Assembly: GCF_051058965.1 (NCBI RefSeq)
Contig: NZ_CP183924.1
Source of the DNA: Corallococcus exiguus
Lineage (GTDB): Bacteria; Myxococcota; Myxococcia; Myxococcales; Myxococcaceae
Reading direction: 5' to 3' (one strand)
Length of the DNA: 64,000 bases
Below the pieces are notes generated by a model, which was not told the origin of the DNA, did no database searches, and saw only the letters and a list, made by a program, of their open reading frames with translations. The position numbers and the translations under genes were made by a program. This document shows positions 38,601 through 54,699 of the stretch, in pieces (position 1 is the stretch's first letter; each line of letters begins with the position of its first letter).

Positions 38601-39237
38601 AACGCGAGACGCCCTTGAGCTTCGCGTCCTCCACGAACTCCGTGGCGAAGCCGCCCTGCTGCGAGCGCGCCTGGGTGTTGGCGCACAGGTGCACGCCGTC
38701 CTGGTGTCCGCCGTGCGTCATCAGGCGCGCGGCCATGTTCACGACCTCGCCCAGCGCCGAGTAGCCCTTGCGCGTGGGCGAGCCCATGTCCCCGCAGTAG
38801 GCGTGGCCGGTGGCGATGCCGATCTGCAGCTCATCCAGGAAGGGGAACTGCGCCCGGGCCTTGAGCAGCTTGCAGGCCAGCCGGCACGCCAGCACCTCCT
38901 TGTTCTGCTGGGCGGTGGGCGCGCCGAACAGGACGTAGAGCACGTTGCCCTTGTCCGTGAAGTCCGTCATCAGCAACACGCCGCCGTGGTGGGCGGACTC
39001 GCGCTGGACGTATTCGTAGTAGGCGTTGAGGTCGTGGGTGAACGCGTCCGGATCCGTGTCCGCCCGCGCGTGGGTGAAGCGCACGAAGAAGCAGGTGACG
39101 TCGCGGAAGTCGCCCGCGAACTCCTGGTGCGCGGTGGTGATCTTCGTGAAGAGCACCGGGTGCAGGAGCAGCGCGCACCGGCCCACCAGCTCCGCCCCAC
39201 CCGTGGGCGCGGGCAGCGGGCGCTTCACCGACTCCAC
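35620..39237 (-). CDS. adenylate/guanylate cyclase (CHD) domain - P-loop NTPase - TPR signalling protein (downstream portion of a frame-disrupted two-CHD gene)
   Basis: A CHD domain (FAGDFRDVTCFFVRFT...HGGVLLMTDFTDKGNVLYVLFGAP...GEVVNMAARL), a Walker A motif GEAGIGKSRL, and a long TPR/helical C-terminus. The ORF opens with GTG at 39237. Confidence 0.7.
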   Translation of the reverse strand: MESVKRPLPAPTGGAELVGRCALLLHPVLFTKITTAHQEFAGDFRDVTCFFVRFTHARADTDPDAFTHDLNAYYEYVQRESAHHGGVLLMTDFTDKGNVLYVLFGAPTAQQNKEVLACRLACKLLKARAQFPFLDELQIGIATGHAYCGDMGSPTRKGYSALGEVVNMAARLMTHGGHQDGVHLCANTQARSQQGGFATEFVEDAKLKGVSRSVPVYRLLGETRRSLFIKGRGDIIGRSRELNVLHASLNAAFAGQGRVSVVSGEAGIGKSRLGARVLEDAEEGGARALYGVCYSYEAFTPFFPWKEVLLQAFGLHDSDDTEAQLTRLRQGLDGLEDVGPEWIPVVAGILGMSLEETSATAGMDARRKQQKVFQIVFQLLEKLSRAQPLLLFFEDLHWADYISLDLLQYLAVRVGSHRIMVLATMRPGDQLRGLRDLPEFVPVDLTSLDEEDTRALLRLHLRLSPPDVALEDRLLAKVQGNPFFIESIVEGLAEQGYLGPVEPGSQRMELKRGLQDLLLPDSIQDVVLSRIDLLSETEKLVVKVASVIGRIFTLDAVAALVPTLGHGVLREAMDTLQRLGLILLETEEPYTCLFKHIVIRDVAYNTLLVSAREDLHRRLARYLEARANDNLAASAGLLAFHFLAGNVEDKGLAYTLMAARSARAQYANDDALYHYNRGLELLGTVVPVDPEVTLLQTRRVMQELAETLLQAGHYANAILMFEQCLVDEEEPPRQAELHLGLGRAHQEKGESALATQHLEKSLVLRGRSLPGSLAALGLRTLANLVLRGLATLLPFILRPLPAARLGNYLQQLSTLNSLIRIYYFADITKLTWATLVSTNMAERSRNDYAMSMARGYYGTLLFGAGLLKRSRYHCEKALEYARRSKDPVAEGLALSRLGIQAFFANELERAREFQEEAVSTLRQVGERWERQTSLMMQATGEFLHSRFRTAVALYEQMGTIGVELNALMHQGWAHSWAPMCRYLLGEGDVGELCAELEQGLRISEEVADLANQCASLNHLANVTVREHQVEEAALVAVRCFESIWSYQVLVPFLQVGLVDAAEAALFALEEGATVVPRKKLLKVVRLSCLKARVIARLYPYLKGPALRVTARSLALRKGPKAAEPVFLEAIAVLEKSPNRWETGVAYFDAAVALPNRREDFLARARAIFTEVEARAELRRMDRFQATHPPGPAGGGARCSPGLKVP

Positions 39238-39337
39238 CGGCGCGTCGAGCGCCAGCCGGTGGTTGCCGCCCTCGCGTGGATCGCCCCTGCGCGCGGACTC
39301 CGGCAGCGCCGCCCAGGCGCGCGGGCTGAGGACGATC

Positions 39338-39907
39338 CGACACCGTGGCCTGCTTCTCCGCGCCCACCGCCTGCGCCAGCGGCTCTCCCACGAGCGCCGG
39401 GTGCATCCACAGGCCGGTGGTGCCCATCACGATGCGGGTGGCCTCACCAAAGCCGATGCCGATGCGCGACGACACGCCGAAGCGCTGGCCCAACAGCTCC
39501 AGCCGGGCGAAGCGCGCGAGCCTGCGCTGCACGCCCAGCGCGCACACCGCCGCTCGCTGCACGACGTCCGCGTCCGCTTCCTCGGGCGCGGACTCGAAGC
39601 ACGCGAGGATGGAGTCGCCGGCGAACTGGTAGATGTCCCCGCCGTGGTCGCGGACGACGTCGATCATCTCCGTGTAGTAGTTCGTCAGCAGGCGCTGGAG
39701 CGCGTCGATGCCGCGAGGGCCCGCGCCGCTCAGCCCCACCACGATGGGCGTGAAGCCCGCGATGTCCAGCAGCAGGATGGCGCCCCGCACGCCCTCCACC
39801 CGGGGCAGCGCGTCCGCATCCTGGCTCCCAAGCCGCGCGAGGATGGCCGCCGGCATGTACGGGGCCAGCATCGCGACAGCGGGATCAATGGGCTGCGTGG
39901 AGGGCAT
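39338..39907 (-). CDS. N-terminal CHD (class III cyclase) segment, frame-disrupted relative to the downstream ORF
   Basis: ILLLDIAGFTP...HGGDIYQFAGDSILACF...IGIGFGEATRIVMG is a complete cyclase homology domain. The track ORF continues to 38831, but past about 39335 its GC3 drops and the residues become Gly/Ala/Arg junk. The +1 frame, that of the downstream ORF, becomes coding there. Confidence 0.55.
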
Positions 39908-39925
39908 CCTTAAGGGGCTTTCCGC

Positions 39926-40327
39926 TCAGGACAGGTTGGCGAAGCGCAGGTACAGGGCGCCCAGGCACATGGCGCCGTAGAGGGGGATTTCCGCCGTCTC
40001 CGGCCAGGGCTGCTGCTTGCGCACCGCGCCCCAGACGTGCACCGCCGTCATCAGTCCACCGATGAGGCCGATGAGCTCGAAGATGACCAGGTGGCTCTTG
40101 GGGTCCGGGATGAACTGCACCACCGCGATGATGACGGACAGCGCCAGGCCGCCCAGGCAACGCGCGAAGTAGACCGTCAAGTCGTTGTTGCCCGTGGGCA
40201 GCTCCCACCCGAACCAACGCGCCCAACGCAGCGGGATGAACAGCAACGGCAACGCGTAGACGACCAGGAAGACCGAGGTGGAGACCGCGAGGAACCAGCT
40301 GGCCAACGGATAGTCGGGGTTGATCAT
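39926..40327 (-). CDS. small integral membrane protein (4 TM), unknown function
   Basis: 133 aa from MINPDYPLASWFLAVSTSVFLVVYALPLLF. The track ORF extends to 40372. Confidence 0.5.
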   Translation of the reverse strand: MINPDYPLASWFLAVSTSVFLVVYALPLLFIPLRWARWFGWELPTGNNDLTVYFARCLGGLALSVIIAVVQFIPDPKSHLVIFELIGLIGGLMTAVHVWGAVRKQQPWPETAEIPLYGAMCLGALYLRFANLS

Positions 40328-40461
40328 GATGGCGGACGTGATGGGTGACGGACGTGCACGCGCGGTGCACACCCCTCCCCACGACGTCCATCCTAGAATC
40401 TTTTGCCACCCCGTGGGGCGGCTTCCCCTTCACCAAGGCCCTGCTTGAGCCCGCCTGCCGC

Positions 40462-40992
40462 CTAGCGGGTGGCGGCCAGGAGGAACTCGGCCACCCGCTC
40501 CAGGGAGGTGGTGCGCTCGGCCTCCACCGGGAAGCGCCGGAACAGCTCCGGTGGCCCGTGCAGGATGAGCGGCTTGCCATAGCGCAAGGCCAGGACGGCC
40601 TCCGCCGCGGTGCCGGCGCCCCCGGGCAGCGCGACCAGGGCATGCGGCGTCAGCACGTTGATGTGGTTGCGGCTCATGGGGTCCGTGCCCTGCTCCCCGC
40701 TGAGCGGCAGGTGGGTGTAGATGGGGATTTCGATGTCCGTGTTCGGGTAGCCGGCCCGGGGCTGGTAACGGCCGTCCGCGCCCACGGTGCCGGGGATGAT
40801 GCCGATGGCCGCCCCCCGCCGCCCCTCCACCTGGACGAAGGCCCCCGCCGCCACGCTCATGACGCCGCCACCCGCGCCGGTGAGCAGGTCGAACCCGGCC
40901 TCCGCAATCCACCGCGCCAGGGGGACGACCCACTCGTCGTGGGAGTGCGCCCCGGAGCCGAACACTCCGATGATGCGGCGGTGTCTGCGCAT
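40462..40992 (-). CDS. TIGR00725-family / LOG-like (SLOG superfamily) Rossmann-fold protein
   Basis: IGVFGSGA...PGG...GTAAE is the LOG/SLOG pattern. 176 aa. Confidence 0.7.
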   Translation of the reverse strand: MRRHRRIIGVFGSGAHSHDEWVVPLARWIAEAGFDLLTGAGGGVMSVAAGAFVQVEGRRGAAIGIIPGTVGADGRYQPRAGYPNTDIEIPIYTHLPLSGEQGTDPMSRNHINVLTPHALVALPGGAGTAAEAVLALRYGKPLILHGPPELFRRFPVEAERTTSLERVAEFLLAATR

Positions 40993-42093: not shown

Positions 42094-45000
42094 TCAGGGC
42101 ACGTCCAGCACGACGCCCTGCCCCGGAACGGCCATCACCCAGCGGACGACGTCGGGCTTGCCGCCGCAGGTGACGCGCACCTCGAACTCGCGCCCCGCGG
42201 GCATCTGGTTGGACAGGGGCGTCTGGCCCTCCAGCACCTGCGAGCCCAGCGCCACGCGGCAGCCCTGGGCACCGGTGATGCTGAGCATGCCCCGGGCCTC
42301 CGCCTGGGGCGGGGCGTCCGCGAGCGTGCGCAGGTCGATGTGCTCCGACCTCGGCACCTTGCCGAAGCGGTGCAGCTTGCCGTCCACGGCCGTGGAGATG
42401 AGCCAGCCGGCGTTGCCTTCGGGCAGGCCCTGGCTCGCATCCAGCAGGACGCCGGACACGTAGACGCGCTCACCCTCCTGGGCGTTGCGCACCTCCACGC
42501 CGCCCTTGGGCAGCAGGAACACCAGCGCGAGCCCCGCGAGCACCAGGCCCACACCGCCCACGATGAGCCCCTTGCGCTGACCGGGCGTCAGTCCCTTCCC
42601 CGTCGCTTCGGCGCCGGGCACCGGAGCCGTGGGGGAGACCGCGTGGACGGGGGCCGGCGGCGCGGCCACGGGAGCCGCCGGAGGCCGCGCGGGCGGGGCC
42701 ACGGGGGCGGACACCGGCGGAGCATGCGGGGCAGCCACGTGCGGCGGCGGCGCGGCCACGGGGTGGTGTCCCCCATAGGCCGCGTGGGAGCCGGTCGGCG
42801 GCGGCGCATGGTGCCCCAGCGGCGGCGGCGGGGCGCTTCCCTGCTGCGCGTGGGCGGCCCCGTATTGCGCGTGGGTGCCCCCATGCGACGGGGGCGCTGC
42901 CACGGGGTGCGGCTGCGGAGCCGCGGTCAGCGGGGCGACAGAGGGCACCGCCACCGACGGACGCGCGGGCGCCTGCGGCGGAGGCCCCACGCGCGTGGGC
43001 ACGTTGGCGGACGCCGCGGGGCGCACCGCGGTGGGCGGCGGCATCGGCGACGTGGGCGGAGGCGCGGCCGGGCGCGACGGACGGGGCGCGGCGGCCACGG
43101 GCGGTGCAACCGGAGGCGCGGAGGCCATGGGCGGCCCGTTGACGGAAACGACCTCGGTGCCCCGCTCGGCGGGCTCCGGCGGGGAAGCCACCGGGGGCGG
43201 CTCCATCCGGGGCATGCTGCCGGAACCGCCGCGCACGGGCGGACGGGACAGGTCCGACGGGGCCCGCATGTCGCTGCCCGAGCCCGTGCTCACGTTGCGC
43301 GAGTGCGAGCCCGTGCCCGGCATCAGCGCCCGGGGGTTGGAGCCCGTCCCCGGGCCGGCGATGGACGACGGCGCGTACTCGGAGAGCCGGTCGCCCAGCG
43401 TCTCCTTGAAGAACTGCGCCACCGACGCGGGCGACGAGGACAGCCGGTGGTGCGTGATGACGGCTTCAATCTCCTCGCGCATCGCCGCCGCGGAGGGCGT
43501 GCGCCGCGCCGGGTCCTTCACCAGCGCGCGCAGGATGAGGTCCGACACGTCCTGCGGGATGTGGGGCCGCAGCTGCGAGGGCACCGGCGCGGGCTCGCGC
43601 ACGATGGCCGCGAGCGTGGCCGCGTCATGGTCCCGGCGGAACGGCAGCTGGCCGGTGAGCAGTTCGAAGAGCACCACGCCCAGCGCGAACACGTCGTTGC
43701 GCCAGTCCAGCGGGCGGCCGCTGGCGGCCTCCGGGGAGAGGTACGAAATCTTCCCCTTGATGACGCCCGCCTGCGTGTGCTCCTCGCCCTGCACCTTGGC
43801 GATGCCGAAGTCCGACAGCTTGATGGCGCCGTCCAGCGACACCAGCACGTTGTGGGGGCTGACGTCGCGGTGCACCACCGGGTGCGCCGTGCCGGAAGGG
43901 TCCACGTAGCTGTGCGCGTAGTGCAGGCCCGCGGCGACCTCCGCCACGATGCGCAGCGCGTGCTCCAGCGGCAGCGCCATGCCCTTGCGGCGCAGCTCCG
44001 TGAGCAGGCGCTTCAGGTCCGGGCCGCGCACGTACTCCATCAGGATGTACGCCACGCCGTCCGTCACGCCCACGTCGAAGGTCTGCACGACGTTGGGGTG
44101 CGTGAGGCGCGCGTTGGCGCGGGCCTCCGCGAAGAGCATGTCGACGAACTCAGGATTCTCAGCGAACTGCGCGAGAATCTTCTTCATCACCACGAACTTC
44201 TCGAAGCCCTTCACGCCCTGCTGCTTGGCGAGAAACACTTCCGCCATGCCGCCCTGCCCCAGCCGGCGGATGATCTGCAGCCGCGCGCCGCTGGTGTGCG
44301 TGTCCGTGGCTGACGAGCCCCGGGCGCCGGGGTCCGTGTTGGTGGAGCCGAAGAGGTACTGACTGAGCGCGCGCTGCTCCAGCGCCTCGATGTCCTCCAG
44401 CGGCTTGTCGGTGAGCGGCGTGCGCGCGAGCAGCCCCTGGAACTGCGCGAGCGCCGGAGCCCGGGAGCTGCCGCCGCAGACGGGGCACACGCGCTCCATG
44501 GTGCCCTTGGCGCGCAGCACCTCCAGGTACTCGGAGGTCTGGATGCGCTGGTGGGTGACCTGGCCGCAGTTGCGGCAGTCACACGGCAGCCACAGCGTGG
44601 CCAGCTTCGCGGGCAGCGTCTTGGTGGACTTCGCCAGCACGGCCAGCAGCGGCGGCGGCACGCGGCAGAGCACCACCTGGGCGCCCTGCGCGGCCACCTC
44701 CAGCACCTGTTCGATGCGCGGCAGCGCTTCCTGCTCCACCACGCTCACGTGGCAGCAGTCGAACGCGACGCGCCCCTCCAGGCCGGACGCCAGCCGGCGC
44801 ACGTTGAGGTCGCCCTTGAGCGTACTGGCCAGGGTGATGAAGGTGATGTCGTCCTGGACGATCTTCAGGTGCGACGAGAGCTCGGACGGCTCCGACGGGA
44901 TGCCGGAGCGCAGGTAGCGCAGCACCGCGGGATCCACCGCGGAGAACTGCTGGCGGCGCGCGAAGTCGAAGAACTCCGTGGGCTCGTCCGCGAACTCCAG

Positions 45001-45438
45001 CGGCTGGGAGCACACCGGGCACTGGTGCGGCGGGGCCCCGCCCTGCTCCAGCACCTTCGCCTCCTCCACCAGGCGGACCAGCCGCAGCCGGTCCTCCTTG
45101 CAGAAGCGGCACGTGTACGGCGCCAACAGCGAGAGCACGCGCGCGACGCCCGCGAAGCCCTCCACCATGTTGAGCTGATCCACCACCACCGGCGGCGCGT
45201 TGACGACGTACAGCCCCGACACGCCCTGCGGCGGGTGGCCGGCGAACTCGATCCACCGGCGCACGCCGAAGGAGCTGATCCGCTCCACCAGGCCCAGGTC
45301 CACCACCACCAGGCCCTGGATGCCCTTGGAGGCTGGCGTGAGGGGGAAGGTTTCGTCGATCACCCCGGCCACGCGCACGTGGGTCAGACTGCCCACGCGC
45401 AGGGAGGTGATGCTGGCATTGGAAGTTTGGCTCTCCAC
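42094..45438 (-). CDS. membrane Ser/Thr protein kinase with two N-terminal STAS (anti-sigma-antagonist-like) domains, each followed by a CxxC...CxxC zinc ribbon, and a C-terminal periplasmic domain
   Basis: Hanks motifs: GQGGMAEVFLAK, VVMKKI, HRDVSPHNVLV, DFG and SYLSPE. STAS1 is SLTHVRVAGVIDETF...VVDLGLVERISSFGV, followed by CRFC...CPVC. STAS2 is followed by CDCRNCG...CPVCG. After the kinase come a Pro/Ala-rich linker, a TM helix (LIVGGVGLVLAGLALVFLL) and a periplasmic domain of about 170 aa. The preferred start is GTG at 45438, with GAGGG upstream. The track ORF runs to 45519. Confidence 0.8.
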   Translation of the reverse strand: MESQTSNASITSLRVGSLTHVRVAGVIDETFPLTPASKGIQGLVVVDLGLVERISSFGVRRWIEFAGHPPQGVSGLYVVNAPPVVVDQLNMVEGFAGVARVLSLLAPYTCRFCKEDRLRLVRLVEEAKVLEQGGAPPHQCPVCSQPLEFADEPTEFFDFARRQQFSAVDPAVLRYLRSGIPSEPSELSSHLKIVQDDITFITLASTLKGDLNVRRLASGLEGRVAFDCCHVSVVEQEALPRIEQVLEVAAQGAQVVLCRVPPPLLAVLAKSTKTLPAKLATLWLPCDCRNCGQVTHQRIQTSEYLEVLRAKGTMERVCPVCGGSSRAPALAQFQGLLARTPLTDKPLEDIEALEQRALSQYLFGSTNTDPGARGSSATDTHTSGARLQIIRRLGQGGMAEVFLAKQQGVKGFEKFVVMKKILAQFAENPEFVDMLFAEARANARLTHPNVVQTFDVGVTDGVAYILMEYVRGPDLKRLLTELRRKGMALPLEHALRIVAEVAAGLHYAHSYVDPSGTAHPVVHRDVSPHNVLVSLDGAIKLSDFGIAKVQGEEHTQAGVIKGKISYLSPEAASGRPLDWRNDVFALGVVLFELLTGQLPFRRDHDAATLAAIVREPAPVPSQLRPHIPQDVSDLILRALVKDPARRTPSAAAMREEIEAVITHHRLSSSPASVAQFFKETLGDRLSEYAPSSIAGPGTGSNPRALMPGTGSHSRNVSTGSGSDMRAPSDLSRPPVRGGSGSMPRMEPPPVASPPEPAERGTEVVSVNGPPMASAPPVAPPVAAAPRPSRPAAPPPTSPMPPPTAVRPAASANVPTRVGPPPQAPARPSVAVPSVAPLTAAPQPHPVAAPPSHGGTHAQYGAAHAQQGSAPPPPLGHHAPPPTGSHAAYGGHHPVAAPPPHVAAPHAPPVSAPVAPPARPPAAPVAAPPAPVHAVSPTAPVPGAEATGKGLTPGQRKGLIVGGVGLVLAGLALVFLLPKGGVEVRNAQEGERVYVSGVLLDASQGLPEGNAGWLISTAVDGKLHRFGKVPRSEHIDLRTLADAPPQAEARGMLSITGAQGCRVALGSQVLEGQTPLSNQMPAGREFEVRVTCGGKPDVVRWVMAVPGQGVVLDVP

Positions 45439-45442
45439 CCGC

Positions 45443-46285
45443 CTACCCTCGTTCCAGACTGAACAGCAGCGACTTGGGCTGCGCGGCCCGGCGGCGACCG
45501 TCGCCCAGGTCCACTCCACAGGCGAACTGTGTGCGCTTTCCCGGAGTCACCCGCACCGCCACTGCGTCGCTGTGCTCCAGGATGCGCCGCAGACCCAGGC
45601 CCGCGCCACCACCCGAAGCATCTACCTGCGCCTTCTCACCCCAGGCCTTCACCACCCGCACCAACGGTGACACCGACAGGCGGCCGAAGCGGTCCGTCGC
45701 CTCCAGCCACGCCCTGCCGTCCGCCACCGCCCACGACACCAGGCAGCGGTCTTCATCCGCCACCGCCTGCACCTGGCCGCGCCGGTGGGCGTACTTCGGC
45801 TCGCCGCTTCCGTCCACTGGCGCGTCGAGCAGCGCGTTCACGCCAATCTCATGGACGACATCCGCCACCCGGCTGGCCGCGCCCTTGGAGCCGCCAGCCT
45901 GGAGGACGGCCTCGGCCGCGCGCTCGCCCACGGCCGTCACCTCCGCCACGCTGCCCAGCCACGCCACGGACGTGGCTGCCTCCTTGGGGATCATGGGCTC
46001 GCCGCGCAACAGCGCGCTCAACAGCCGCGCCTCCCAGGCGGACGGCTGGCCGCCCTCACGGGTGGCCAGCAGCAGCGCCGGGGGACGGCGTTCCAGGAGC
46101 GCGGCGTGGGCGGGAGTGAACCGCCCGTCGAACAGCACCAGCTGCGGCGCCGCGTCGTCACCGCGCCCCAACAACAGGCCGTCCCGGGCCAGCACTCCGG
46201 AGGCCTTCTCCAGCGCCTCCGGCGTGAGCGTCGTGTCCGGCGTCAACTTCAGGGGAGCATCCTTCACGGCGGCGACGGTATCCAA
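45443..46285 (-). CDS. GHKL-ATPase (HATPase_c) protein, RsbW/SpoIIAB-like anti-sigma-factor kinase candidate
   Basis: An N-box-like HEIGVNAL and a G2-box GGGAGLGL. It lies 4 nt upstream of the STAS-kinase gene and 8 nt downstream of the TonB-dependent receptor gene. Confidence 0.55.
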   Translation of the reverse strand: MDTVAAVKDAPLKLTPDTTLTPEALEKASGVLARDGLLLGRGDDAAPQLVLFDGRFTPAHAALLERRPPALLLATREGGQPSAWEARLLSALLRGEPMIPKEAATSVAWLGSVAEVTAVGERAAEAVLQAGGSKGAASRVADVVHEIGVNALLDAPVDGSGEPKYAHRRGQVQAVADEDRCLVSWAVADGRAWLEATDRFGRLSVSPLVRVVKAWGEKAQVDASGGGAGLGLRRILEHSDAVAVRVTPGKRTQFACGVDLGDGRRRAAQPKSLLFSLERG

Positions 46286-46293
46286 ACAGCGCC

Positions 46294-48813
46294 CTAATAA
46301 TGGAGTCGAACTTCTGTGAAGACGCCCAGCGGCGGTGCGGGGAAGCCGTGGGACTCCTCGTACTTCGCGTTGAAGAGGTTCGTGCCCAACAGTGACACCG
46401 CCACGCGCTCGTGGACGTTGAAGCCCACGCGCGCGGTCGCGGTGATGTAGCTGGGCAGCTTCACGCGGGTGGTGGTGCCGGCGTTCTCGTCCACCACGAA
46501 GCCCGGATCATACCGGGCGCCCACGAACAGGCCGTAGAGCTCCACGAAGGCGAACTTGCCGATGTTGGTGCGGCCGCGCAGGTAGACGCGGTGGCTGGGC
46601 GCGTAGTCCAGCGGGTAGCCGGATCCGCCGCCCACCGGCAGCGCCTGGGCGTCCAGGAACTGGTAGGCCACGTCAAAGGACGAGTTGAGGGACGGCACCT
46701 GCGCCGCCGCTTCCGCCTCGAAGCCCGCCACGCGCGCGTCGCCCAGGTTCTTGAACTGGGACGTGGAGCCGAAGAGGAGCTCCTGATTGATGAAGTTGCG
46801 GGCGCGGTTGTAGAAGCCCGTGCCCGTCAGGCGCACCCTGCGGTCCAGCGGCCAGAAGTCCACCGCCGCCTCCACCGTGTCCAGCGTCTCCGCGCGCAGG
46901 GACGGGTTGCCCAGGAGCGTCGCGGCGTACATCTGCTGGTTGATGGCCAGCTCCGCCAGCGTGGGCGCGCGGAAGGCGCGGCCGTAGTTGGTGCGCAGCG
47001 TGAGCAGCTCCGGGATGGCGTGGAACACGACGCTGGCGCGCGGGGACACCTGATCCGTCTTCGCCTCCCAGACCTTGGAGGGGATCTGGTAGTTGTCGTA
47101 GCGAGCGCCCGCGCCCACCACCAGCCGGTCCGTGATGCGGTACTCCGCGTCCACGAAGCCGCCCAGGATGGTCTGCTTCGTGTCGTCCAGGGTCAGGCCG
47201 GGCAGGATGTTCTGGTTGTTCACCTGGTCGGCCTTCACGTCGCCGCCGACGGTGACGGAGAGCTTGTCCAGGGAGAACAGCGCGCGCGCCTCACCGCCCA
47301 GGCGGCTGCGCTTGCCCAGCGTGTCCTCCAGGGCGCCGGTGATTTCATTCTCCAGCGTCACGTTGCGGCGCTTGAAGAAGGCGTAGGCCTGGGCGAACAC
47401 GCGCACGTTGTCCGTCACCTGCTGATCCAGCTGCAGGGCGGTGTTCAGGTTCTGGACGTGCTCGTTGTCCTGCGCGGTGTAGTGGCAGCGGCCGCAGTTG
47501 CCCACGGTGGAGATGTTCTGACCACCGGGCCGGCCGATGTTGCCGTCCGTGAAGTCCGCGTCCAGCGCGAGAGGACCCACGCGGACCTTGCCGTTCACCT
47601 GGTGGACCAGCGAGTCCTCGTTGGTGTCCGTCTGGTTCAGCTGCGGGTTGTTGAAGAGCTGCGGGCCGTCCGAGCCGAAGCCGTAGTAGCCGAGCAGCGC
47701 CTCCACCGGGCCGCCGCGGCCGGCGACGTTGGTCTGCAGGCGCCAGGTCTTGTCCTGGCCCGCGAGGATGCGCGCGTCGGCGCCCACGTTCTGGCCCTTG
47801 GCGATGAGGTCCGCGGGCTGGCGCTCGATGATGTTGATGACGCCGCTGAAGGCGTTGGAGCCGTAGAGCGACGAGCCCGGGCCGCGGATGACTTCCACCT
47901 GCTTCAGGTTGGTGAGCGGCGTCGTCTCATCCGCGTAGAACTGGCCCGTCCAGGGGTCCGTCAGCGGACGGCCGTCCTTGAGGAGCAGGAGGCGGTTGGA
48001 CAGGTAGTTGGAGCCCAGGCCGCGCGCGCTCACCGCCGCCTTGCGCATGGAGCCCCGGCGGCACTCCATGCCGGGGAAGTACTGGATGGCCTCGCAGAGC
48101 GAGAACTGGCCGGTGCCCTCCAGTTCCTCCGCGGGGATCCACGACACCGTGAGGGGCACGTCGGAGATGCGCTGGCTGCGCTTGGACGCCGTGGTGACGA
48201 CGGCCTCGCTCAGCGCCCTGTTGATGTTCTGCTCCAGGTCGTCGCCACCGCCCAGGTCCGGGCCGTCCAGGCCGGAGAGGCTGGAGGGCGGCGGCAGCGC
48301 GCGGTCGGAGGTGGGCTCCGTGAAGGGCGCGCGGTCCGGGACGTTGTCCGCCGTGCGCGGCTGTGACGACGGGAGCACCGCGCCGGCACCCAGCGTGGGC
48401 GCGGGCGGCGGGTTGGACGGGATGTCCGAAGTCAGCGGCCCGTCATACGGCGACGGCGAGGCCACGGGCAGCGGATCCGAAACGGACGGGCCAGGGCCGG
48501 CCACGGGGGCGAGCGGCGCGGGCGGCGGCTCGGTGGCGAGCGCCGGCGGCTGCGCGGCGGGCTCGTCCCCGGGAATGGGCTCCACGTCCGTCGGCGGGGG
48601 CTGCGCCTTCGCGCCCCGGCGCGTCTTCGCCGTGCGCGGAGGCTTCGCGCCGGGCGTGGCGGCCTTGGCACCCGGCGTGGTCGCCGCGCGCTTGCGGGGG
48701 GCCTTGGTCCGCGTCTTGGGGGCGGGCTCCTGGGCCTCCTGGGCCTGGGCCGTCTCCACCGCGAAGAGGGACAGGGCGCAAACCACCAGGGTCAGGCACG
48801 CGCGCGCGCCCAT
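46294..48813 (-). CDS. TonB-dependent outer-membrane receptor with a long Pro/Ala/Lys-rich N-terminal extension
   Basis: A signal peptide (MGARACLTLVVCALSLFAVETAQA), about 170 aa of low-complexity extension, a plug domain (VVTTA, IRGPGSSLYGSNAFSGVINI), and a barrel ending in the aromatic ...EVRLHY. An internal CGRCH motif is present. Confidence 0.85.
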   Translation of the reverse strand: MGARACLTLVVCALSLFAVETAQAQEAQEPAPKTRTKAPRKRAATTPGAKAATPGAKPPRTAKTRRGAKAQPPPTDVEPIPGDEPAAQPPALATEPPPAPLAPVAGPGPSVSDPLPVASPSPYDGPLTSDIPSNPPPAPTLGAGAVLPSSQPRTADNVPDRAPFTEPTSDRALPPPSSLSGLDGPDLGGGDDLEQNINRALSEAVVTTASKRSQRISDVPLTVSWIPAEELEGTGQFSLCEAIQYFPGMECRRGSMRKAAVSARGLGSNYLSNRLLLLKDGRPLTDPWTGQFYADETTPLTNLKQVEVIRGPGSSLYGSNAFSGVINIIERQPADLIAKGQNVGADARILAGQDKTWRLQTNVAGRGGPVEALLGYYGFGSDGPQLFNNPQLNQTDTNEDSLVHQVNGKVRVGPLALDADFTDGNIGRPGGQNISTVGNCGRCHYTAQDNEHVQNLNTALQLDQQVTDNVRVFAQAYAFFKRRNVTLENEITGALEDTLGKRSRLGGEARALFSLDKLSVTVGGDVKADQVNNQNILPGLTLDDTKQTILGGFVDAEYRITDRLVVGAGARYDNYQIPSKVWEAKTDQVSPRASVVFHAIPELLTLRTNYGRAFRAPTLAELAINQQMYAATLLGNPSLRAETLDTVEAAVDFWPLDRRVRLTGTGFYNRARNFINQELLFGSTSQFKNLGDARVAGFEAEAAAQVPSLNSSFDVAYQFLDAQALPVGGGSGYPLDYAPSHRVYLRGRTNIGKFAFVELYGLFVGARYDPGFVVDENAGTTTRVKLPSYITATARVGFNVHERVAVSLLGTNLFNAKYEESHGFPAPPLGVFTEVRLHY

Positions 48814-49109
48814 CCGACCGGCAAACCCCTTCACCGCGTTGGTGCGCGATCCACCGTACTCAGTCGAGTCCATCGTTCTCAATTCCACGAGGGGAAGCAG
48901 GGGGTATCCGCGGTTCTAGCGCCAGGAACCAGAGCCGGTGCGGCTGGCAATTGTTCTCAGGGATGAGTTTCCACCCCTGAACGGTGGCGTTCCGCTCGAC
49001 TTCTCAAATTACCGCAATAACTCGCCTTAGGCCAAGTCATGGCTGTCGATCGCGGTGAAACACGCGCACGGCGGTGGAAACCCCGTGCGCGGATCAGCTC
49101 ACGGCGCAA

Positions 49110-50036
49110 TCAGTCATCCGGCTGTTCGGCGGAGACGGCCAGGTCGTCCACGAACGGCGGGAGGGCGGGACCCAGCGACTCGGATTGGACGAGCACGGGC
49201 GTCTCCACCCGCAGGTCGGGAGAGTCCGCGAGGACGGGCTGACGGCGCGGGGGGCCCTGGGTGACGAGCTTGCGGAAGTCCTCGAACTCGCGGCCCTGGA
49301 TGCGGGCGAAGGCGTCGAACGGGGCGACCGCACCCACGGAGGACAGGGACTGGGACAACGCGTCTCCCCCGCCCTTCAGGTCCACCAGCACGGCGCCCGG
49401 CACCCGGCTGCTCTTGAAGAGCACCCGCATGTCCTTGGGCACGTGCGCCACCGGAACGAGCGCGGCCTCCGCGCCCTTGGCCTCCAGCATCTTCACCGCC
49501 GACTCCACGTTGGGCACCGGCACCAGCTTGAAGTGCTTCTGGGCATCCAGGTCGCCGCCCAGCACGACGTGGGAGACGAACTTCGGATCCGCGGAGCCCG
49601 CGCCCTTGACCAGCGCCATGCGCTTGCCGGCGAGGTCCTTCACGGTGCCCTTCTGGAGGGAGATGATGGCCCAGCGCTGCTGCGTCTCACCGGCGCGCGG
49701 CGCGTACGCCACCGGCTCCGCCTTGGAGCCCAGCTGCACCGCGGCCCAGCCGTCCACCACGGCGAAGTCGATCTGCCCCTCCCCCACTGCCTTGGAGAAG
49801 TCCTCGTAGCGGCCAAAGCTCTTGGCGCCAACGGGGCGGCCCAGGCTGGCCTCCAGCTTCTGGGCGAGCGCCTCCGCGTACTGGAAGCGCTCCTGACCGT
49901 CCGACAGCGTCGTGGCGAGGAACACGCCCAGCGTGGCCTTTTTCGGCGCGGCGGACGCGGGGCTGGCAACGGAAACGGCGAACAGCACGGCGGCGAGCAG
50001 GAGGCTCCCCCGCGCGACAAGGGATGGCGTCTTCAC
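49110..50036 (-). CDS. periplasmic substrate-binding protein, PhnD/SsuA-like (phosphonate-type ABC SBP fold)
   Basis: A signal peptide (MKTPSLVARGSLLLAAVLFAVSVASPASA) and a two-lobe SBP-like composition. It overlaps the upstream TPR gene by 4 nt (ATGA). Confidence 0.6.
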   Translation of the reverse strand: MKTPSLVARGSLLLAAVLFAVSVASPASAAPKKATLGVFLATTLSDGQERFQYAEALAQKLEASLGRPVGAKSFGRYEDFSKAVGEGQIDFAVVDGWAAVQLGSKAEPVAYAPRAGETQQRWAIISLQKGTVKDLAGKRMALVKGAGSADPKFVSHVVLGGDLDAQKHFKLVPVPNVESAVKMLEAKGAEAALVPVAHVPKDMRVLFKSSRVPGAVLVDLKGGGDALSQSLSSVGAVAPFDAFARIQGREFEDFRKLVTQGPPRRQPVLADSPDLRVETPVLVQSESLGPALPPFVDDLAVSAEQPDD

Positions 50037-52558
50037 GGCGTCTCCTCCGCGACCCCGGTGGCCGGCGTGACGCCCTGCGCGTCACCCAGTCCATAGAGGC
50101 CCTGCAGGCGGTCCTTCCATTCCCGCACCTGGGCAGCGCGGGGGCCCGCGCCAGCGGCCAGGTAGCGGCGCCAGGCGTCCACGGCCTCGGCGGGTTCATG
50201 CCGTCGCTCCTGCGCGTCGATGCCCAGGTTGAGCGAGGCGACAGGTACGGCGGTCTCCAGGCGCTTCCACGTCGCGAGCGCCGAAGCGCTGTCGCCCTGG
50301 CGCCACCCCACGCACGCCAGGTTGTGCTGCACCAGCGCGTCGTCGGGCGTCGCGGCGAGCGCGGCCTTCAGCGCCTTCTCCGACGCCTTCATGTTGCCAG
50401 AGGCGTACGCGAGCGCCGCCTCACGCCGCAGCAGCGCGCCGGTGAGGTTGCCCATCCACTTCGGCTGCCCGGGCATGGGCTTCTTCTGCGCGGCGGTGAG
50501 CAGCTTGCGCGAGGGCGCGACCTTGCCCTGACGGTAGAGCACCCACGCGTCCGCGAGCGCGCGCGTGTTGGGCCACGACCATTCCGGCGCGGGCGTGAGG
50601 GAGCGCTTGAGGCCCGCGGTGGCCTCCGCGAACTTCCCTTCTTCCGCGCGCGTGAGCGCCCGGGCGAAGGCGGCCAGCTTCGCCACGTCCGCGCGCTTGC
50701 CGGTGCCCAGGCGGTCCACCGCGTCCAGGTCCCGGTTCGCCGCGGCGGCGTCGCCCGTCTCCAGCTTCGCCAGGGCCCGGCGCACCAGCACGCGAGGCAG
50801 GTTCGCCTCCGCCACCTTCGCGGCCGTCTTGGAGGGCCCCGCGTCCGTCAGCCGCTGCACGGCGGCGTCCACCTGGCCCAGCTCCACTTCCGCGAGCGCG
50901 GCGCCCGCGGACGCTTCCGCGCGCTGATCCGGCTCCTGCGTGGCCTCACCAGACTGGGTGAACGCGGCGAGCGCGGCCTGCGCATCGCCACCGCCCAGCC
51001 GGGCGTAGCCGAGCAACAGGTGCTCGCGCCAGGTCGCGCCCGGCAGCGTCACCGCGCCCTCCATCACCTTGCGGGCCTCCGCGAACTGGTGGCTGTCCAG
51101 GAGCGCCGCGCCCAGCCGGCGGGCCATGGGCACGGAGCGGTCCAGGTCATACGCGCGGCGCAGGTCACGCACGGCGTCTTCCAGGCGCTGGGTGCCGGCG
51201 CGATCTCTCGCGCGGTGGGCCAGGGCCCGGGCCAGCCACTGCTTCGCGCCGGGGTGGTTGGGTTCCACCTGGAGCGCGCTGCCGTAGTCCTCGATGGCCT
51301 GATCCCACTGGCCGGTGGCGAAGTGATCCGCGCCCAGCAGCACGTGGCCCAGCGCCTGGCGCGGGGCCATCTCCACCACGCGCCGGTGCACCTCCACCGC
51401 GCGCTGGTAGCGGCCGGCGCGGCGGTTGACGGAGCCCAGCGTCGCCCACAGCTCCAGGCTGCCGCCGCCCGACTTCACGGCGGACTCCAGGAACTGGATG
51501 GCCTCCTCGTGGCGCGCCTGCGCCTGGAGCGCCTTGCCCACGGCGATCTGTCCCAGGAGCAGGCCCGGCTGCAGCTCCAGCACCTTGCGGAACTCCGCTT
51601 CCGCCTGCGCGGGCTGCTTCTGCGCGAGCCGCACGTCACCCATCAAGAGGTGCGCGGCGGGCGTGGAGCCCAGCTTCATCAGGGCGGTGGCCTGCAGGTC
51701 CGCGCGCGGCACGTCGCCCGCGGCCAGGTACAGGCGCGCGAGGCGCTCCTTCGGCTCCGCCACCTGCGGGAACTTCGTCACCAGCCGCTCCAGGAGCGCG
51801 CGGGACTCCGGCACGTGGCCTTCCATCTCCAGCACGGCCGCGAGGCCGATCTGCGCCGTCGCGGACTCGGCCCGCCCGGCCTGCGCCTTCTCGAACGAGG
51901 CGCGCGCGGCGACAGCGTCCCGGCGGATGAGATGCGCCTTGCCCAGCAGCTCGTGGATCTGGAAGTCGTTGCCCGCGAGCTTCTCCGGGCGCAGCGTCAG
52001 GTAGCGCTGCAGCCGCGTCACGGCGCGGTTCCCGTCCTGGACGTACAGGTAATAGCTGGCCAGGTAGTAGTGGACGATGAGGTGGTCCGGCTGATCCGCG
52101 GCGGCCACCTGCTCCAGCACCGGCACCGCCTCCTGGAAGCGGCGCAGCTTGAAGTACGCGGTGCCCAGCGGGTACGCGAGCGACAGCTCCTGCGGGTTCT
52201 GCGCGAACACCGGCGCAAGGCGCGTCACCGTTCGCTGGAAGTCCTGGAGCGCGTTGGCGGCGCTGCCCAGGCCCGCGGCGGCGAACACGGACTGGGGCTC
52301 CTGCGTGAGCGCCTGCTCGAAGAGCTGGAGCGCCTTCTTGAACTTCTCCTCCGCCTCCTTCTTGTCACCCTTGGAGGCGGCGGCGTTGGCGGACACGAGG
52401 GCCTGCTCGCCCTGCTCCGTCATGCGCTGCGCCTCGGTGGCGGGCGGCGGGCGGAACTGGGCGAGCGCCGCCGGCGGACCGGACAGGGTGGCCAGCAGGG
52501 CGAGCGCGGTGGAGACGCGGCGCGGGGAACGAAGGAATGGGCGCATGCGATTCGTCAA
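50033..52558 (-). CDS. secreted tetratricopeptide-repeat protein (about 20 TPR units)
   Basis: A signal peptide followed by many W/Y-L-G-A-Y TPR-like repeats. Its start ATG overlaps the upstream PP2C stop (ATGA). Confidence 0.75.
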   Translation of the reverse strand: MTNRMRPFLRSPRRVSTALALLATLSGPPAALAQFRPPPATEAQRMTEQGEQALVSANAAASKGDKKEAEEKFKKALQLFEQALTQEPQSVFAAAGLGSAANALQDFQRTVTRLAPVFAQNPQELSLAYPLGTAYFKLRRFQEAVPVLEQVAAADQPDHLIVHYYLASYYLYVQDGNRAVTRLQRYLTLRPEKLAGNDFQIHELLGKAHLIRRDAVAARASFEKAQAGRAESATAQIGLAAVLEMEGHVPESRALLERLVTKFPQVAEPKERLARLYLAAGDVPRADLQATALMKLGSTPAAHLLMGDVRLAQKQPAQAEAEFRKVLELQPGLLLGQIAVGKALQAQARHEEAIQFLESAVKSGGGSLELWATLGSVNRRAGRYQRAVEVHRRVVEMAPRQALGHVLLGADHFATGQWDQAIEDYGSALQVEPNHPGAKQWLARALAHRARDRAGTQRLEDAVRDLRRAYDLDRSVPMARRLGAALLDSHQFAEARKVMEGAVTLPGATWREHLLLGYARLGGGDAQAALAAFTQSGEATQEPDQRAEASAGAALAEVELGQVDAAVQRLTDAGPSKTAAKVAEANLPRVLVRRALAKLETGDAAAANRDLDAVDRLGTGKRADVAKLAAFARALTRAEEGKFAEATAGLKRSLTPAPEWSWPNTRALADAWVLYRQGKVAPSRKLLTAAQKKPMPGQPKWMGNLTGALLRREAALAYASGNMKASEKALKAALAATPDDALVQHNLACVGWRQGDSASALATWKRLETAVPVASLNLGIDAQERRHEPAEAVDAWRRYLAAGAGPRAAQVREWKDRLQGLYGLGDAQGVTPATGVAEETP

Positions 52559-54147
52559 GGCGAGGGGGCGGGGCTGAATTCGGCGACGATGACGGTGATG
52601 TCGTCGCGCTGGGGCTGGCCGGCGCTGTACGCGCGCACGTCCGCGAGGAGCGCGTCGCGAAGGGCGTCGGCGGGGAGGTGGGCGTGGGTCTGGAGCGCGG
52701 CGGCCAGCCGCTGCGTGCCGTAGAGCCGGTTGGCACCGTCGCGCGCCTCGGTGAGGCCGTCCGTGTACCAGACGACGATGTCACCGGGGCTCAGCTGCGC
52801 CTGGCGCGACGTGAACTGCGACGCCACGTTCGCGCCCAGCAGCGGACCGCGCGCCGGCAGCGACGAAATCTGCCGCGTGTTCCGGTTGTAGACGGCCGCC
52901 GCCGGGTGGGCGCCCGCCGCGTAGTCAATCTGGCCGCTGTACACGTCGATGACCGCGAGCGCGCTGGACATCTGGTGCTCGCCGCGGCCCACGTTGGCCA
53001 GCGTCACGTTGAGCGCGGTGATCAGCATCTGCGCGTGCACCTGCGACGGCTCACGCAGCGTCATGGCGGAGGCGAAGCCGCTGGTGGCGCTGGTGGCGAC
53101 CAGCGACGTGGACAGGCCGTGGCCCGTCACGTCTCCGATGCCAATCACCACGCGCCGGTCGTCCAGCGCGGCGCGGAACCACCAGTCGCCGCCGCACGCG
53201 TCCGCGGGCACCACCAGCCCGGCCAGCCGCAGCGGGCCCACCGTCACGGCCTCGCGGCCCGGCAGGAGCGTCTCCTGCACCGTGCGCGCGAGCGACACCT
53301 CGCGCTCCAGCTGCGCCTTGGCGCGCACGTCCTCCAGCAGGACCTTGATGCGCTCCGCCATGTGGTTGAACACCACGCCCAGCGTCGTCACCTCGCGGCC
53401 CGCGCCCGGCGCAGTGCCCGCGCGAGCGCCCAGGTCACCGGCGGCCAGCTGCATCACGCGGTGGGTGAGCACGCCCAGCGGCTTGGTGATGCGGCGGCTC
53501 TGGAAGGCGGCCAGCACGCCGGCCAGGACGACGAAGCCCACGCCCAGCCCGACAATGCGCAGCGTGTTGGCGCGCACCGCGGCGCGGTTGGTCTCCTCCA
53601 ACTCATGCAGCTGCTTCTGCAGGTCCTCCAGCGAGTAGCTGATGACGACCACGCCCTTGCCGGCCTGCGAGCCGTAGTCGAGCGGCTCCTGGAACTCGAA
53701 GACGGGCTGGCCCTGGAAGAAGGCGCTGGCCCAGCGGCGCTCCGCGGTGCGGCCTCCGGAGGACTCGCCCAGCTTGGCGGACGGGTCGCTGTCCGCGACG
53801 AGCTGCCCGTCCGCGTCGAACATCTGCACGCGCAGGATGTTTCGGTTGTCCGCGATGATGGAGCGCGCCACTTCCGTGAGGAACGCGTAGTTGTTGTCGC
53901 GCAGGCTGGTGGCGGAGGTGAGCGCCAGCGTGTGGCTCACCGTCTGGCCCAGTTCGCGCGCCTGGGACTGGAGCCGCTGCGTGAAGCGGTCCGACGTCGC
54001 GGTGAGCTGCGCCTCCGTCGTCTTCGCGGACAGCGCGGCCAGCAGGCCCACGATCACGATGACCAGCGCGCCCGTGGTGAGCAGCAGCAGCTGATCCAAC
54101 CGGAGCCCGCGGATGGCCGCCACGTTGGGCAGCTCTCCGGCCTCCAT
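52555..54147 (-). CDS. membrane sensor Ser/Thr phosphatase: periplasmic sensor domain - HAMP - PP2C (SpoIIE/RsbU family)
   Basis: TM1 (LLLLTTGALVIVIVGLLAAL), a periplasmic region of about 150 aa, TM2, HAMP (ITKPLGVLTHRVMQLAAGDL), and the PP2C motifs IGDVTGHG and DGLTE. Confidence 0.8.
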   Translation of the reverse strand: MEAGELPNVAAIRGLRLDQLLLLTTGALVIVIVGLLAALSAKTTEAQLTATSDRFTQRLQSQARELGQTVSHTLALTSATSLRDNNYAFLTEVARSIIADNRNILRVQMFDADGQLVADSDPSAKLGESSGGRTAERRWASAFFQGQPVFEFQEPLDYGSQAGKGVVVISYSLEDLQKQLHELEETNRAAVRANTLRIVGLGVGFVVLAGVLAAFQSRRITKPLGVLTHRVMQLAAGDLGARAGTAPGAGREVTTLGVVFNHMAERIKVLLEDVRAKAQLEREVSLARTVQETLLPGREAVTVGPLRLAGLVVPADACGGDWWFRAALDDRRVVIGIGDVTGHGLSTSLVATSATSGFASAMTLREPSQVHAQMLITALNVTLANVGRGEHQMSSALAVIDVYSGQIDYAAGAHPAAAVYNRNTRQISSLPARGPLLGANVASQFTSRQAQLSPGDIVVWYTDGLTEARDGANRLYGTQRLAAALQTHAHLPADALRDALLADVRAYSAGQPQRDDITVIVAEFSPAPSP

Positions 54148-54699
54148 GGGCGCGATGACCGTGCTCGTGGGCTCCGTCGCCGGCAGCCCCACCGAGCCCG
54201 TCAGCCGGGTGGCCGTGTTCTCCCCACGCAGCCCGGTGAGCTCCCGGGAATGGGTGCCGGTGTACTCCGGTGGAGGAGGCGGGGTGCCGGGCGCCGCATC
54301 GGATGCATCAGGTGATTCGGGCACGGGATCGAGGCGCGGGTTCGTACGGGACAAAGGCACACCTGGGGGAGCCCGCGTCGGAGAACGCGGTCGGGGCGGG
54401 GCGGACTGTATCTCACTTCCTGATTGACGCGAGGAGTCCACCTGTCGGGCTATTCCTCGCGGTCGCCCCCTCACCCGCCCCCCCAACGGCCGTGCGATCA
54501 GCCCGGACCGGGAGCGTCCAACCGCCTCCTGGAAGCAGCACGTCACGAGGGCATGGATGAGTTCCGCTCATTGCCGCGTCGCGCCACCCGGGGGCAGAAA
54601 GGTGCTGGCGAACACCCGTGACATCAGGGTCCTTGAGTCGGGAGGCCGCGTTCGGAGTATAGGGGCGTCCCTTTCTTTCCCCTTCGAGGTCGTCCGCCC

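Follow-up and report, generated by a model that had tools for sequence, protein, structure and literature searches.

Introduction

The partner switches of Bacillus, SpoIIAA–SpoIIAB–SpoIIE and RsbV–RsbW–RsbU, combine a STAS domain that carries a serine at the N-terminus of helix α2, a GHKL serine kinase encoded by an adjacent gene and a clustered SpoIIE/PP2C phosphatase, and a similar set is found in the myxobacterium Corallococcus exiguus at the locus described here. The window, that is, the whole stretch of DNA that was analysed, comprises 64,000 nucleotides (nt) of contig NZ_CP183924.1 (assembly GCF_051058965.1), and between positions 45438 and 42094 of its minus strand it encodes a Hanks-type Ser/Thr kinase with an N-terminal STAS region. 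Unlike in the Bacillus SpoIIA and Rsb modules, there are two STAS copies, both of which have a four-cysteine (Cys4) zinc ribbon as a cap and form part of a Hanks kinase. The GHKL protein likewise differs from its Bacillus counterparts in having an extra N-terminal α/β domain of ~110 amino acids (aa) and in escaping recognition by Pfam, a sigma factor gene is missing from the Corallococcus cluster, and the Asp of the D-S-x-G motif is replaced by Ser or Thr.

Switches of this kind that work without a sigma factor have been described before. In the Anabaena system of All4160 (a STAS–glycosyltransferase), HenR and Alr3423, STAS is fused to the enzyme that it regulates and the switch is set by a PP2C phosphatase and GHKL-type kinases with no sigma factor (PMC13555669). 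The corallococcal kinase resembles All4160 in the direct fusion of STAS to an enzyme, the PP2C/GHKL control being a proposal in the present case, whereas All4160 has a glycosyltransferase output, a single STAS domain, no zinc ribbons and genes that do not lie in one operon (PMC13555669). A further precedent for a sigma-less partner switch is the SiaA/B/C/D system of Pseudomonas aeruginosa, in which, unlike the corallococcal STAS, SiaC is a stand-alone protein, and the diguanylate cyclase that serves as output is bound and not fused. In Rv1364c of M. tuberculosis (PAS–RsbU–RsbW–RsbV) the kinase, phosphatase and STAS are all fused together, whereas here the STAS resides on the Hanks kinase and the GHKL and PP2C proteins are encoded by separate genes.

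In myxobacteria Hanks kinases number about a hundred or more, of which, to our knowledge, hardly any has a known input signal or a known means of regulation. By analogy, the mycobacterial PknG (rubredoxin domain – kinase – TPR) has a Cys4 element N-terminal to its Hanks kinase as the protein described here does, PknG being without STAS, and the pair of PknD and Rv0516c offers an example of the cross-talk between a Hanks kinase and STAS that is considered here, the STAS substrate of PknD being a separate protein. Fusions of STAS (COG1366) to eukaryotic-like kinases were already noted in 2010 in Sorangium cellulosum, and, as here, they place an anti-anti-sigma-like domain on a eukaryotic-like kinase in a myxobacterium (PMC2887360). 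The same survey describes no tandem STAS–zinc-ribbon module, cryptic GHKL gene or conserved cluster, and reports few phosphatase partners and low kinase/phosphatase co-organisation in myxobacterial genomes (PMC2887360). What is new here is a partner-switching-like gene set in which the STAS is duplicated, ribbon-capped and Hanks-fused, together with a GHKL kinase that has been missed by sequence libraries.

A Hanks kinase with two STAS–zinc-ribbon modules

The kinase gene (42094..45438, minus strand) starts with a GTG at 45438 and ends with a stop codon at 42094-42096. Its 1114-aa product, the N-terminus of which reads VESQTSNASITSLRV (minus-strand translation from 45438), is identical, start included, to the deposited Corallococcus exiguus protein WP_434300280.1, a 'protein kinase domain-containing protein', and the GTG start claimed in an earlier sequence-only reading of this DNA, which named no strand, is borne out. 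The G+C content at third codon positions (GC3) is 0.94 and the codon-position pattern is as in a real gene, the G+C content of the window being 68-76%. A start at 45519, given by the longest open reading frame (ORF), was rejected, as it would give a 77-nt overlap with the upstream gene, and the plus-strand reading of 42094-45438 yields no sensible protein.

The domain order is two consecutive copies of a STAS domain with a four-Cys zinc ribbon, a Hanks kinase, a Pro/Ala-rich linker, a transmembrane (TM) helix and a PEGA-like periplasmic domain. Apart from the likeness to PEGA, this is the architecture that the sequence-only reading had given, and all the motifs it quoted are present in the translation, with ISSFG at aa 54-58, DCCHV at 227-231, CRFC at 110, CPVC at 140, CDCRNC at 286-291 and a further CPVC at 318. 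In Pfam, the only match to the protein above threshold is Pkinase, the STAS and zinc-ribbon matches being sub-threshold, and NCBIfam returns kinase models only; neither of the two libraries has a model for the (STAS-ribbon)×2 module itself.

For aa 1-370, AlphaFold gives from a 12-sequence alignment a model with a mean predicted local distance difference test (pLDDT) score of 81 that contains two β-β-β-α-β-α-β units, each of which leads into a β-hairpin with CxxC pairs; the α1 helix of the STAS fold (β-β-α-β-α-β-α-β) is a loop in the model. In a Foldseek search against the PDB the best matches are anti-sigma-factor antagonists and SLC26 STAS domains, and among small domains these are 4hyl, SpoIIAA (1tid, 1th8 and 1auz), RsbV (6m36), RsbS (6jhk) and YchM (3ny7), all with probabilities of 0.99-1.0 and target-normalised TM-scores of 0.6-0.67. 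A profile of STAS1 alone (34 sequences), when searched against the PDB sequences, similarly retrieves solved STAS proteins, namely 4hyl (E=3.4e-5), prestin (2.9e-4), TM1442 (4.7e-3) and SpoIIAA (0.015). The question of whether the N-terminal modules adopt a STAS fold at all, upon which the sequence-only reading depended, is thus answered in favour of STAS by the model, the structural comparison and the profile search.

STAS1 (aa 5-109; 45112..45426, minus) contains the conserved motif R-I-[S/T]-S-F-G-V-R-x-W and is matched by Pfam STAS_2 over aa 42-90 with E=1.2e-4 and 22.6 bits (cut-off 29.2), and STAS2 (aa 186-285; 44584..44883, minus) is matched by Pfam STAS over aa 222-270 with E=0.035 and 14.3 bits (cut-off 22.6). 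The scores of the query against the Pfam STAS families (PF01740 / PF13466) fall below the gathering score and the domains are therefore divergent; the gathering scores are exceeded on either the first or the second module in several homologs, by STAS_2 in P0132 (32.1 bits, on the second module) and by STAS in P0046 (27.7), P0053 (26.2) and P0017 (24.7). When modules 1 and 2 are aligned with hhalign as profiles of 97 sequences each, they match with a probability of 99.7% and E=6.9e-26 over 107 columns, which identifies the two halves as a true duplication.

Each STAS domain is followed by a ribbon, as had been read from the sequence, and this is confirmed by the conserved CxxC pairs and the β-hairpins on which the ribbon knuckles lie in the AlphaFold model. 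Zinc ribbon 1 (aa 110-150; C110, C113, C140 and C143; 44989..45111, minus) has weak, sub-threshold matches to Pfam ribbon and rubredoxin families, and its four cysteines are ~99% conserved in 233 aligned module copies. Zinc ribbon 2 (aa 286-327; C288, C291, C318 and C321; 44458..44583, minus) is defined by the CxxC motifs in the sequence and in the family, whereas C286, with which CDCRNC begins, lacks conservation. Of 125 long family members, 112 have four or more CxxC motifs, the first and second being 25-34 aa apart, and the knuckles often read CxxCG. Judged from the model and from sequence conservation, both N-terminal modules are STAS folds with zinc ribbons, and the ribbons are Cys4 zinc-ribbon or rubredoxin-like knuckles, one conserved pair per module, with predicted metal binding.

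A candidate phospho-acceptor serine in STAS1

The sequence-only reading had aligned ISSFG of STAS1 with the DSSG of SpoIIAA and RsbV, which is supported by the STAS1 profile, the precise correspondence being that of SSFG to DSSG. In the HMMER alignments, [T/S]55-S56-F57-G58 falls on D-S-A-G in TM1442, S-S-A-G in 4hyl and D-S-V-G in prestin, so that STAS1 keeps the Ser and Gly of the D-S-x-G motif and has S or T in place of the Asp. The candidate acceptor Ser56 (codon 45271..45273, minus) is located at the N-terminus of helix α2, which spans residues 56-67 in the AlphaFold model. In the family alignment, position 56 is Ser in 144 of 154 rows, position 58 is Gly in 155 of 156 and position 55 is Thr or Ser, and among rows with a residue at the site S56, G58 and W62 are each at least 93% conserved. 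A loss of the Ser motif that would track the absence of a neighbouring GHKL gene was considered and ruled out, the motif being kept in paralogs with no adjacent GHKL gene.

For STAS2, the earlier prediction that the domain is probably non-phosphorylatable is retained, on different grounds. The DCCHV that had been taken as the equivalent of ISSFG aligns instead with DLGLV (aa 47-51) of STAS1 in hhalign, and ISSFG aligns with VEQEA (aa 234-238) of STAS2, where the family consensus has no conserved Ser. The acceptor position is thus occupied by Gln236, from which it follows that STAS2 is probably non-phosphorylatable.

A SpoIIAB-like GHKL protein encoded next to the kinase

Immediately upstream of the kinase gene lies a gene (45443..46285, minus) for a 280-aa protein with an N-terminal α/β domain and a GHKL Ser-kinase domain of the SpoIIAB/RsbW type, the M. 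xanthus ortholog of which is MXAN_4558. Its stop codon is 4 nt before the GTG of the kinase, and M. xanthus DK1622 shows a 4-nt overlap between the corresponding genes. Neither this SpoIIAB-like gene nor the clustered SpoIIE phosphatase was recognised in the sequence-only reading.

The protein was identified by structure comparison only. Pfam gives nothing for it even at E≤10, phmmer and hmmsearch against the PDB sequences give only noise, and in hhalign its profile finds nothing in a single CheY sequence. A model built with 35 homologs has a pLDDT of 90 and a predicted TM-score (pTM) of 0.89, and in Foldseek it matches SpoIIAB at the top (E=2.3e-6, target-normalised TM-score 0.71-0.75), followed by RsbW, UsfX and SiaB, with the SiaB-SiaC structure among the matches; its nearest structural neighbours are without exception kinases that phosphorylate STAS domains. 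The N, G1 and G2 boxes of the ATP-binding site, E146-x3-N150, D198-x2-G201 and GGGAGLG at 225-231, are invariant in the 35 homologs, and the spacing of E146-x3-N150 equals that of E46 and N50 in SpoIIAB. Taken at the level of the predicted fold and the motifs, the 280-aa protein is a motif-complete member of the GHKL structural subfamily whose known substrates are STAS domains, and the family to which it belongs is a kinase class that is invisible to Pfam and NCBIfam and clear at the fold level.

The N-terminal ~110 aa of the protein form a β-α-β-β-α-β-α-β domain modelled with pLDDT >90, in which G54, R76, W84 and E85 are conserved, and for which no confident structural or sequence match was obtained. 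Foldseek alignments of this domain to LvrC and LvrB give a hint of a receiver-like fold.

A conserved cluster with a membrane sensor phosphatase

The genes from 54546 to 42094 are all read from the minus strand and either overlap or stand a few nt apart, except at one gap of ~220 nt; they form a conserved cluster whose products would span the cell envelope, and they encode in order a HAMP–SpoIIE/PP2C phosphatase, a TPR protein, a PhnD-like protein, a TonB-dependent receptor, the GHKL protein and, as the last, the STAS-fused kinase. The phosphatase (52555..54546, minus) appears to be a membrane sensor with two TM helices found in a TM scan, a periplasmic Cache-like region, a HAMP domain (E=4.8e-9) and a SpoIIE/PP2C domain (PF07228, E=5.3e-39); the true start of its gene is probably internal. 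By synteny it corresponds to MXAN_4562 of M. xanthus DK1622; M. xanthus has no SpoIIE-like phosphatase other than mxan4562, the orthologs of which are sce8427 and adeh0917 (PMC2887360). The MXAN_4557–4562 cluster is thus an obvious place to look for its STAS substrate, if such exists.

Linkage was surveyed by tblastn and a hidden Markov model (HMM) of the GHKL family run against six-frame translations of 84 loci. Wherever the sequence upstream of a Cystobacterineae ortholog extends far enough, the full order PP2C–TPR–PhnD–TonB-dependent receptor–GHKL–kinase is found, and the GHKL gene adjoins the kinase in every Cystobacterineae ortholog locus with upstream sequence except for second, paralogous copies; these copies, in Archangium, Cystobacter and Vitiosangium, have no GHKL gene beside them. 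A PP2C–TPR–PhnD–GHKL–kinase order also occurs in a metagenome-assembled genome (MAG) of Polyangiaceae (L076). The 16 loci most distant from it all encode homologs of 26-33% identity and come from MAGs of Kofleriaceae, Polyangia and related Myxococcota; 14 of them have a GHKL homolog, or two, no more than a few kb away. The GHKL gene is absent beside a GAF-cyclase member (L083) and a PDZ member (L084). In several of the distant loci (among L065-L080) a GHKL paralog is located on each side of the kinase gene.

Size and distribution of the family

A word-indexed homolog search gave only 16 matches and missed close orthologs, and an exhaustive profile search for the double module in 1.84 billion cluster representatives, together with a genome scan, was used instead. 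The profile search yields 3,744 matches among cluster representatives at E≤1e-3, 2,444 at ≤1e-10 and 427 at ≤1e-30, so that the architecture, which had been called unusual, is not rare, and with the STAS–kinase fusions of Sorangium noted in 2010 the word holds in a relative sense only. On the sequence evidence the (STAS-ribbon)×2 unit is a widespread uncurated module and not a one-off. In the best 148 members the module is followed by a Hanks kinase in 49 and preceded by one in nine, 67 are without a kinase, and 23 are short or fragmentary and also without one; other fusion partners of the double module are GAF with adenylate/guanylate cyclase, PDZ and FIST_N/FIST_C domains.

The matches of the genome scan are nearly all labelled Myxococcota. 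Orthologs of 50-97% identity are found in Corallococcus, Myxococcus, Pyxidicoccus, Archangium, Hyalangium and Cystobacter, with N-termini that are 94-97% identical in other Corallococcus species, and homologs of 26-33% identity are found in Kofleriaceae, Polyangia and other Myxococcota MAGs. The distant homologs (loci L065-L080; ~780-910 aa) consist of (STAS-ribbon)×2, kinase, linker and a C-terminal membrane anchor, without the periplasmic domain. Two family entries are chimeric gene calls, one in which the GHKL gene is read through into the kinase N-terminus (P0007) and one in which STAS1 and ribbon 1 are joined to an unrelated STAS–cNMP-binding sequence (P0005); both are likely frameshift or assembly artefacts.

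The kinase domain and the membrane-anchored C-terminus

The Hanks-type Ser/Thr kinase domain (aa 384-671; 43426..44289, minus) is matched by NCBIfam kinase models and by Pfam Pkinase at aa 388-653 with E=1.2e-41 and 143 bits (cut-off 31.7). The sequence has the G-loop GQGGMAEV, K418 as the β3 Lys, E437 as the αC Glu, HRD514, N519, DFG and SPE. The catalytic loop, HRDVSPHN (aa 512-519; 43851-43874, minus), has Ser in place of the canonical Lys of HRDxKxxN, and the same exchange to Ser or Thr is seen in ~100 kinases fused to (STAS-ribbon)×2, with HRDLKPEN occurring in only two.

The kinase is followed by a low-complexity linker of 276 aa (aa 675-950; 42589..43416, minus) composed of 25% Pro, 18% Ala, 9% Ser, 9% Gly and 4.7% His. 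The sequence-only reading had described about 250 aa rich in Pro, Ala and His, of which the Pro/Ala low complexity stands, His being a minor component. The linker varies in length among the orthologs, which range from 1045 to 1164 aa. Draft Corallococcus and Myxococcus assemblies often stop within the linker of the ortholog, ~750-850 codons in (loci L003-L012, L015, L020, L026, L034, L039 and others), and such ends account for many 'partial' kinases in the databases.

A hydropathy scan locates a single TM helix (aa ~955-977; 42508..42576, minus) preceded by basic residues, after which a predicted extracytoplasmic, PEGA-like domain of 137 aa (aa 978-1114; 42097..42507, minus) completes the protein. 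The PEGA assignment comes from the orthologs, as Pfam PEGA (PF08308) matches nine of 20 orthologous C-termini (best E=1.2e-5) and not the C-terminal 150 aa of the query, the last 137 aa of which have no Pfam match, and a profile of the periplasmic domain finds only noise in the PDB sequences. The kinase is predicted to be an inner-membrane protein that exposes its tandem STAS–ribbon module to the cytoplasm. The C-terminal domain is confined to Cystobacterineae orthologs and contains a conserved WVMAVPGQ motif and two invariant cysteines, C1060 and C1091, the conservation of which suggests a disulfide.

Other genes of the cluster and its surroundings

The remaining genes of the cluster, all on the minus strand, encode proteins with signal peptides and are supported by synteny. 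The 841-aa periplasmic TPR protein (50033..52558) is matched by TPR families, and the PhnD-like periplasmic solute-binding protein (49110..50036) by PF12974 with E=6.8e-11, its synteny including the Polyangiaceae locus. The TonB-dependent receptor (46294..48888; MXAN_4559), the start codon of which is uncertain, has Plug and β-barrel domains; an STN signalling domain was not detected in it. Its region before the Plug is long (the first ~240 aa) and has a Lys/Pro/Ala/Thr-rich stretch, …APKTRTKAPRKRAATTPGAKAATPGAKPPRTAKTR…, after the signal peptide.

Downstream of the kinase, also on the minus strand (35620-40992), are genes for a SLOG cluster-4 protein (40462-40992), a 148-aa ORF (39926-40372) and a 1205-aa adenylate/guanylate cyclase–AAA_16–TPR protein (35620-39237). 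These genes are syntenic in Corallococcus and Hyalangium, and since M. xanthus has lanthionine-dehydratase-like genes in their place, they probably lie outside the conserved unit.

A literature search found no paper on MXAN_4557 or MXAN_4558. For MXAN_4556-4562 it returned only outer membrane vesicle and porin lists (4559), the phosphatome survey (4562) and a review on predatory bacteria as a source of antibiotics, which names 4561 once.

Discussion

Building on the observed domain folds, motifs, internal duplication, family size and gene linkage, we propose a sigma-less, partner-switching-like phospho-switch on STAS1 that controls the fused Hanks kinase, a reading to which we would give about an even chance. 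In such a switch the GHKL protein would bind STAS1 and phosphorylate Ser56, and the membrane HAMP-PP2C phosphatase would remove the phosphate on a periplasmic cue, which could plausibly be tied to the TonB-dependent receptor, the solute-binding protein and the TPR protein. The phosphorylation state of STAS1, and with it the binding of the GHKL protein, would then toggle the attached Hanks kinase on or off. STAS2, having no acceptor, may serve as a constitutive docking or dimerisation partner, and the zinc ribbons might act as structural braces in place of the usual C-terminal STAS helix. We infer the phosphorylation of Ser56, the enzyme responsible and the effect on the Hanks kinase alike.

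Several observations weigh against this proposal. Ser56 is a candidate phosphorylation site by analogy, the Asp of the D-S-x-G motif is Ser or Thr in STAS1, and a conserved Ser occupies the same position in STAS domains that are not known to be phosphorylated, such as the DSVG of prestin, so that S56 may do no more than cap the helix. Paralogs, GAF-cyclase members and PDZ members that have no adjacent GHKL gene keep the Ser motif to the same degree, and the conservation of the Ser thus does not track the GHKL linkage. As to the putative upstream kinase, HATPase_c_2 has no significant match in the GHKL protein and matches one of its 35 homologs at E=0.009, and in hhalign the GHKL profile finds nothing in a single SpoIIAB sequence. 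Given its HRDVSPHN loop, the Hanks domain is a putative output kinase. Finally, the six conserved genes of the cluster include no sigma factor gene and encode no other third partner, and for this reason the system is called 'partner-switching-like' and not a true partner switch.

The STAS-ribbon units could instead be protein-interaction, oligomerisation or small-ligand input domains, as in the STAS of SLC26/SulP proteins and MlaB, with the Ser being a helix cap and the GHKL protein a binding partner, an ATPase or a kinase with another substrate. In line with such a role, proteins of the GAF-cyclase, PDZ and FIST kinds carry the same module and Ser motif, as do paralogs that have no GHKL gene linked to them; the fit of the prestin STAS to the motif is no worse than that of the anti-sigma antagonists, and the divergent STAS domains of the query score below the Pfam thresholds. 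We nevertheless consider it rather unlikely, as the GHKL linkage is kept across deep Myxococcota lineages with a SpoIIE-type phosphatase in the same cluster, and the GHKL protein both retains all the ATP-binding and catalytic motifs and has only STAS-phosphorylating kinases as its closest structures. A second way of connecting the parts would be for the Hanks domain to phosphorylate its own STAS, in cis or in trans within a dimer, with the state of the STAS capturing or releasing a GHKL protein whose target lies elsewhere. The kinase and STAS are covalently linked, in either order, in at least 58 of the 148 best members, and the unusual loop HRD[VI][ST]PxN that the kinases share suggests co-evolution of a kinase subfamily with the module. 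That a Hanks kinase can act upon a STAS protein was reportedly found by Greenstein et al. in 2007 (cited in PMC2877116) for PknD and Rv0516c of M. tuberculosis; the site on Rv0516c is reportedly Thr2 and not the canonical STAS Ser. An adjacent, motif-complete kinase of the SpoIIAB type would be redundant in such a scheme, many members carry the module without a Hanks domain, and self-phosphorylation therefore appears improbable.

The ribbons themselves could be redox- or metal-responsive rubredoxin-like sensors that gate the kinase, with the STAS domains as a scaffold only, in the manner of mycobacterial PknG, where a rubredoxin domain gates the kinase. The ~99% conservation of the four-Cys knuckles and their frequent CxxCG form, the position of ribbon 2 ~60 aa before the kinase domain and the weak rubredoxin-like matches in Pfam would all be in line with such sensors; the ribbons are, however, equally conserved in members without a kinase, Cys4 ribbons are most often purely structural, and the conserved linkage to the GHKL and PP2C genes would be left unexplained, which makes this very improbable as the sole explanation. 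A sensory function of the ribbons is otherwise compatible with the phospho-switch on STAS1, and the two need not exclude each other.

Extended to the whole family, the proposed phospho-switch would make (STAS-ribbon)×2 a widespread, uncurated input module, here seen almost only in Myxococcota, that lets a SpoIIAB-type GHKL kinase and a SpoIIE-type phosphatase gate Hanks kinases, and perhaps, in paralogs, cyclases, FIST and PDZ proteins, in a sigma-free manner. The same extension would supply a substrate for MXAN_4562 and a function for MXAN_4557–4562, which would probably lie in detecting a ligand that is periplasmic or imported by way of TonB, and we offer it tentatively, as somewhat doubtful in its full extent. 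Should it hold, it would describe a partner-switching module that has a protein kinase and not a sigma factor as its output, and the sigma-free switch would link the 'bacterial' and the 'eukaryotic-like' systems of Ser/Thr phosphorylation. If the phospho-switch on STAS1 is right, MXAN_4557 and its orthologs would acquire a concrete, testable wiring in which a sensor PP2C and a cryptic GHKL kinase act on one Ser, and the sole SpoIIE-type phosphatase of M. xanthus would have a likely substrate. At the level of the family, a definition of the domain would annotate thousands of proteins that are now generic 'serine/threonine kinase' or hypothetical entries.

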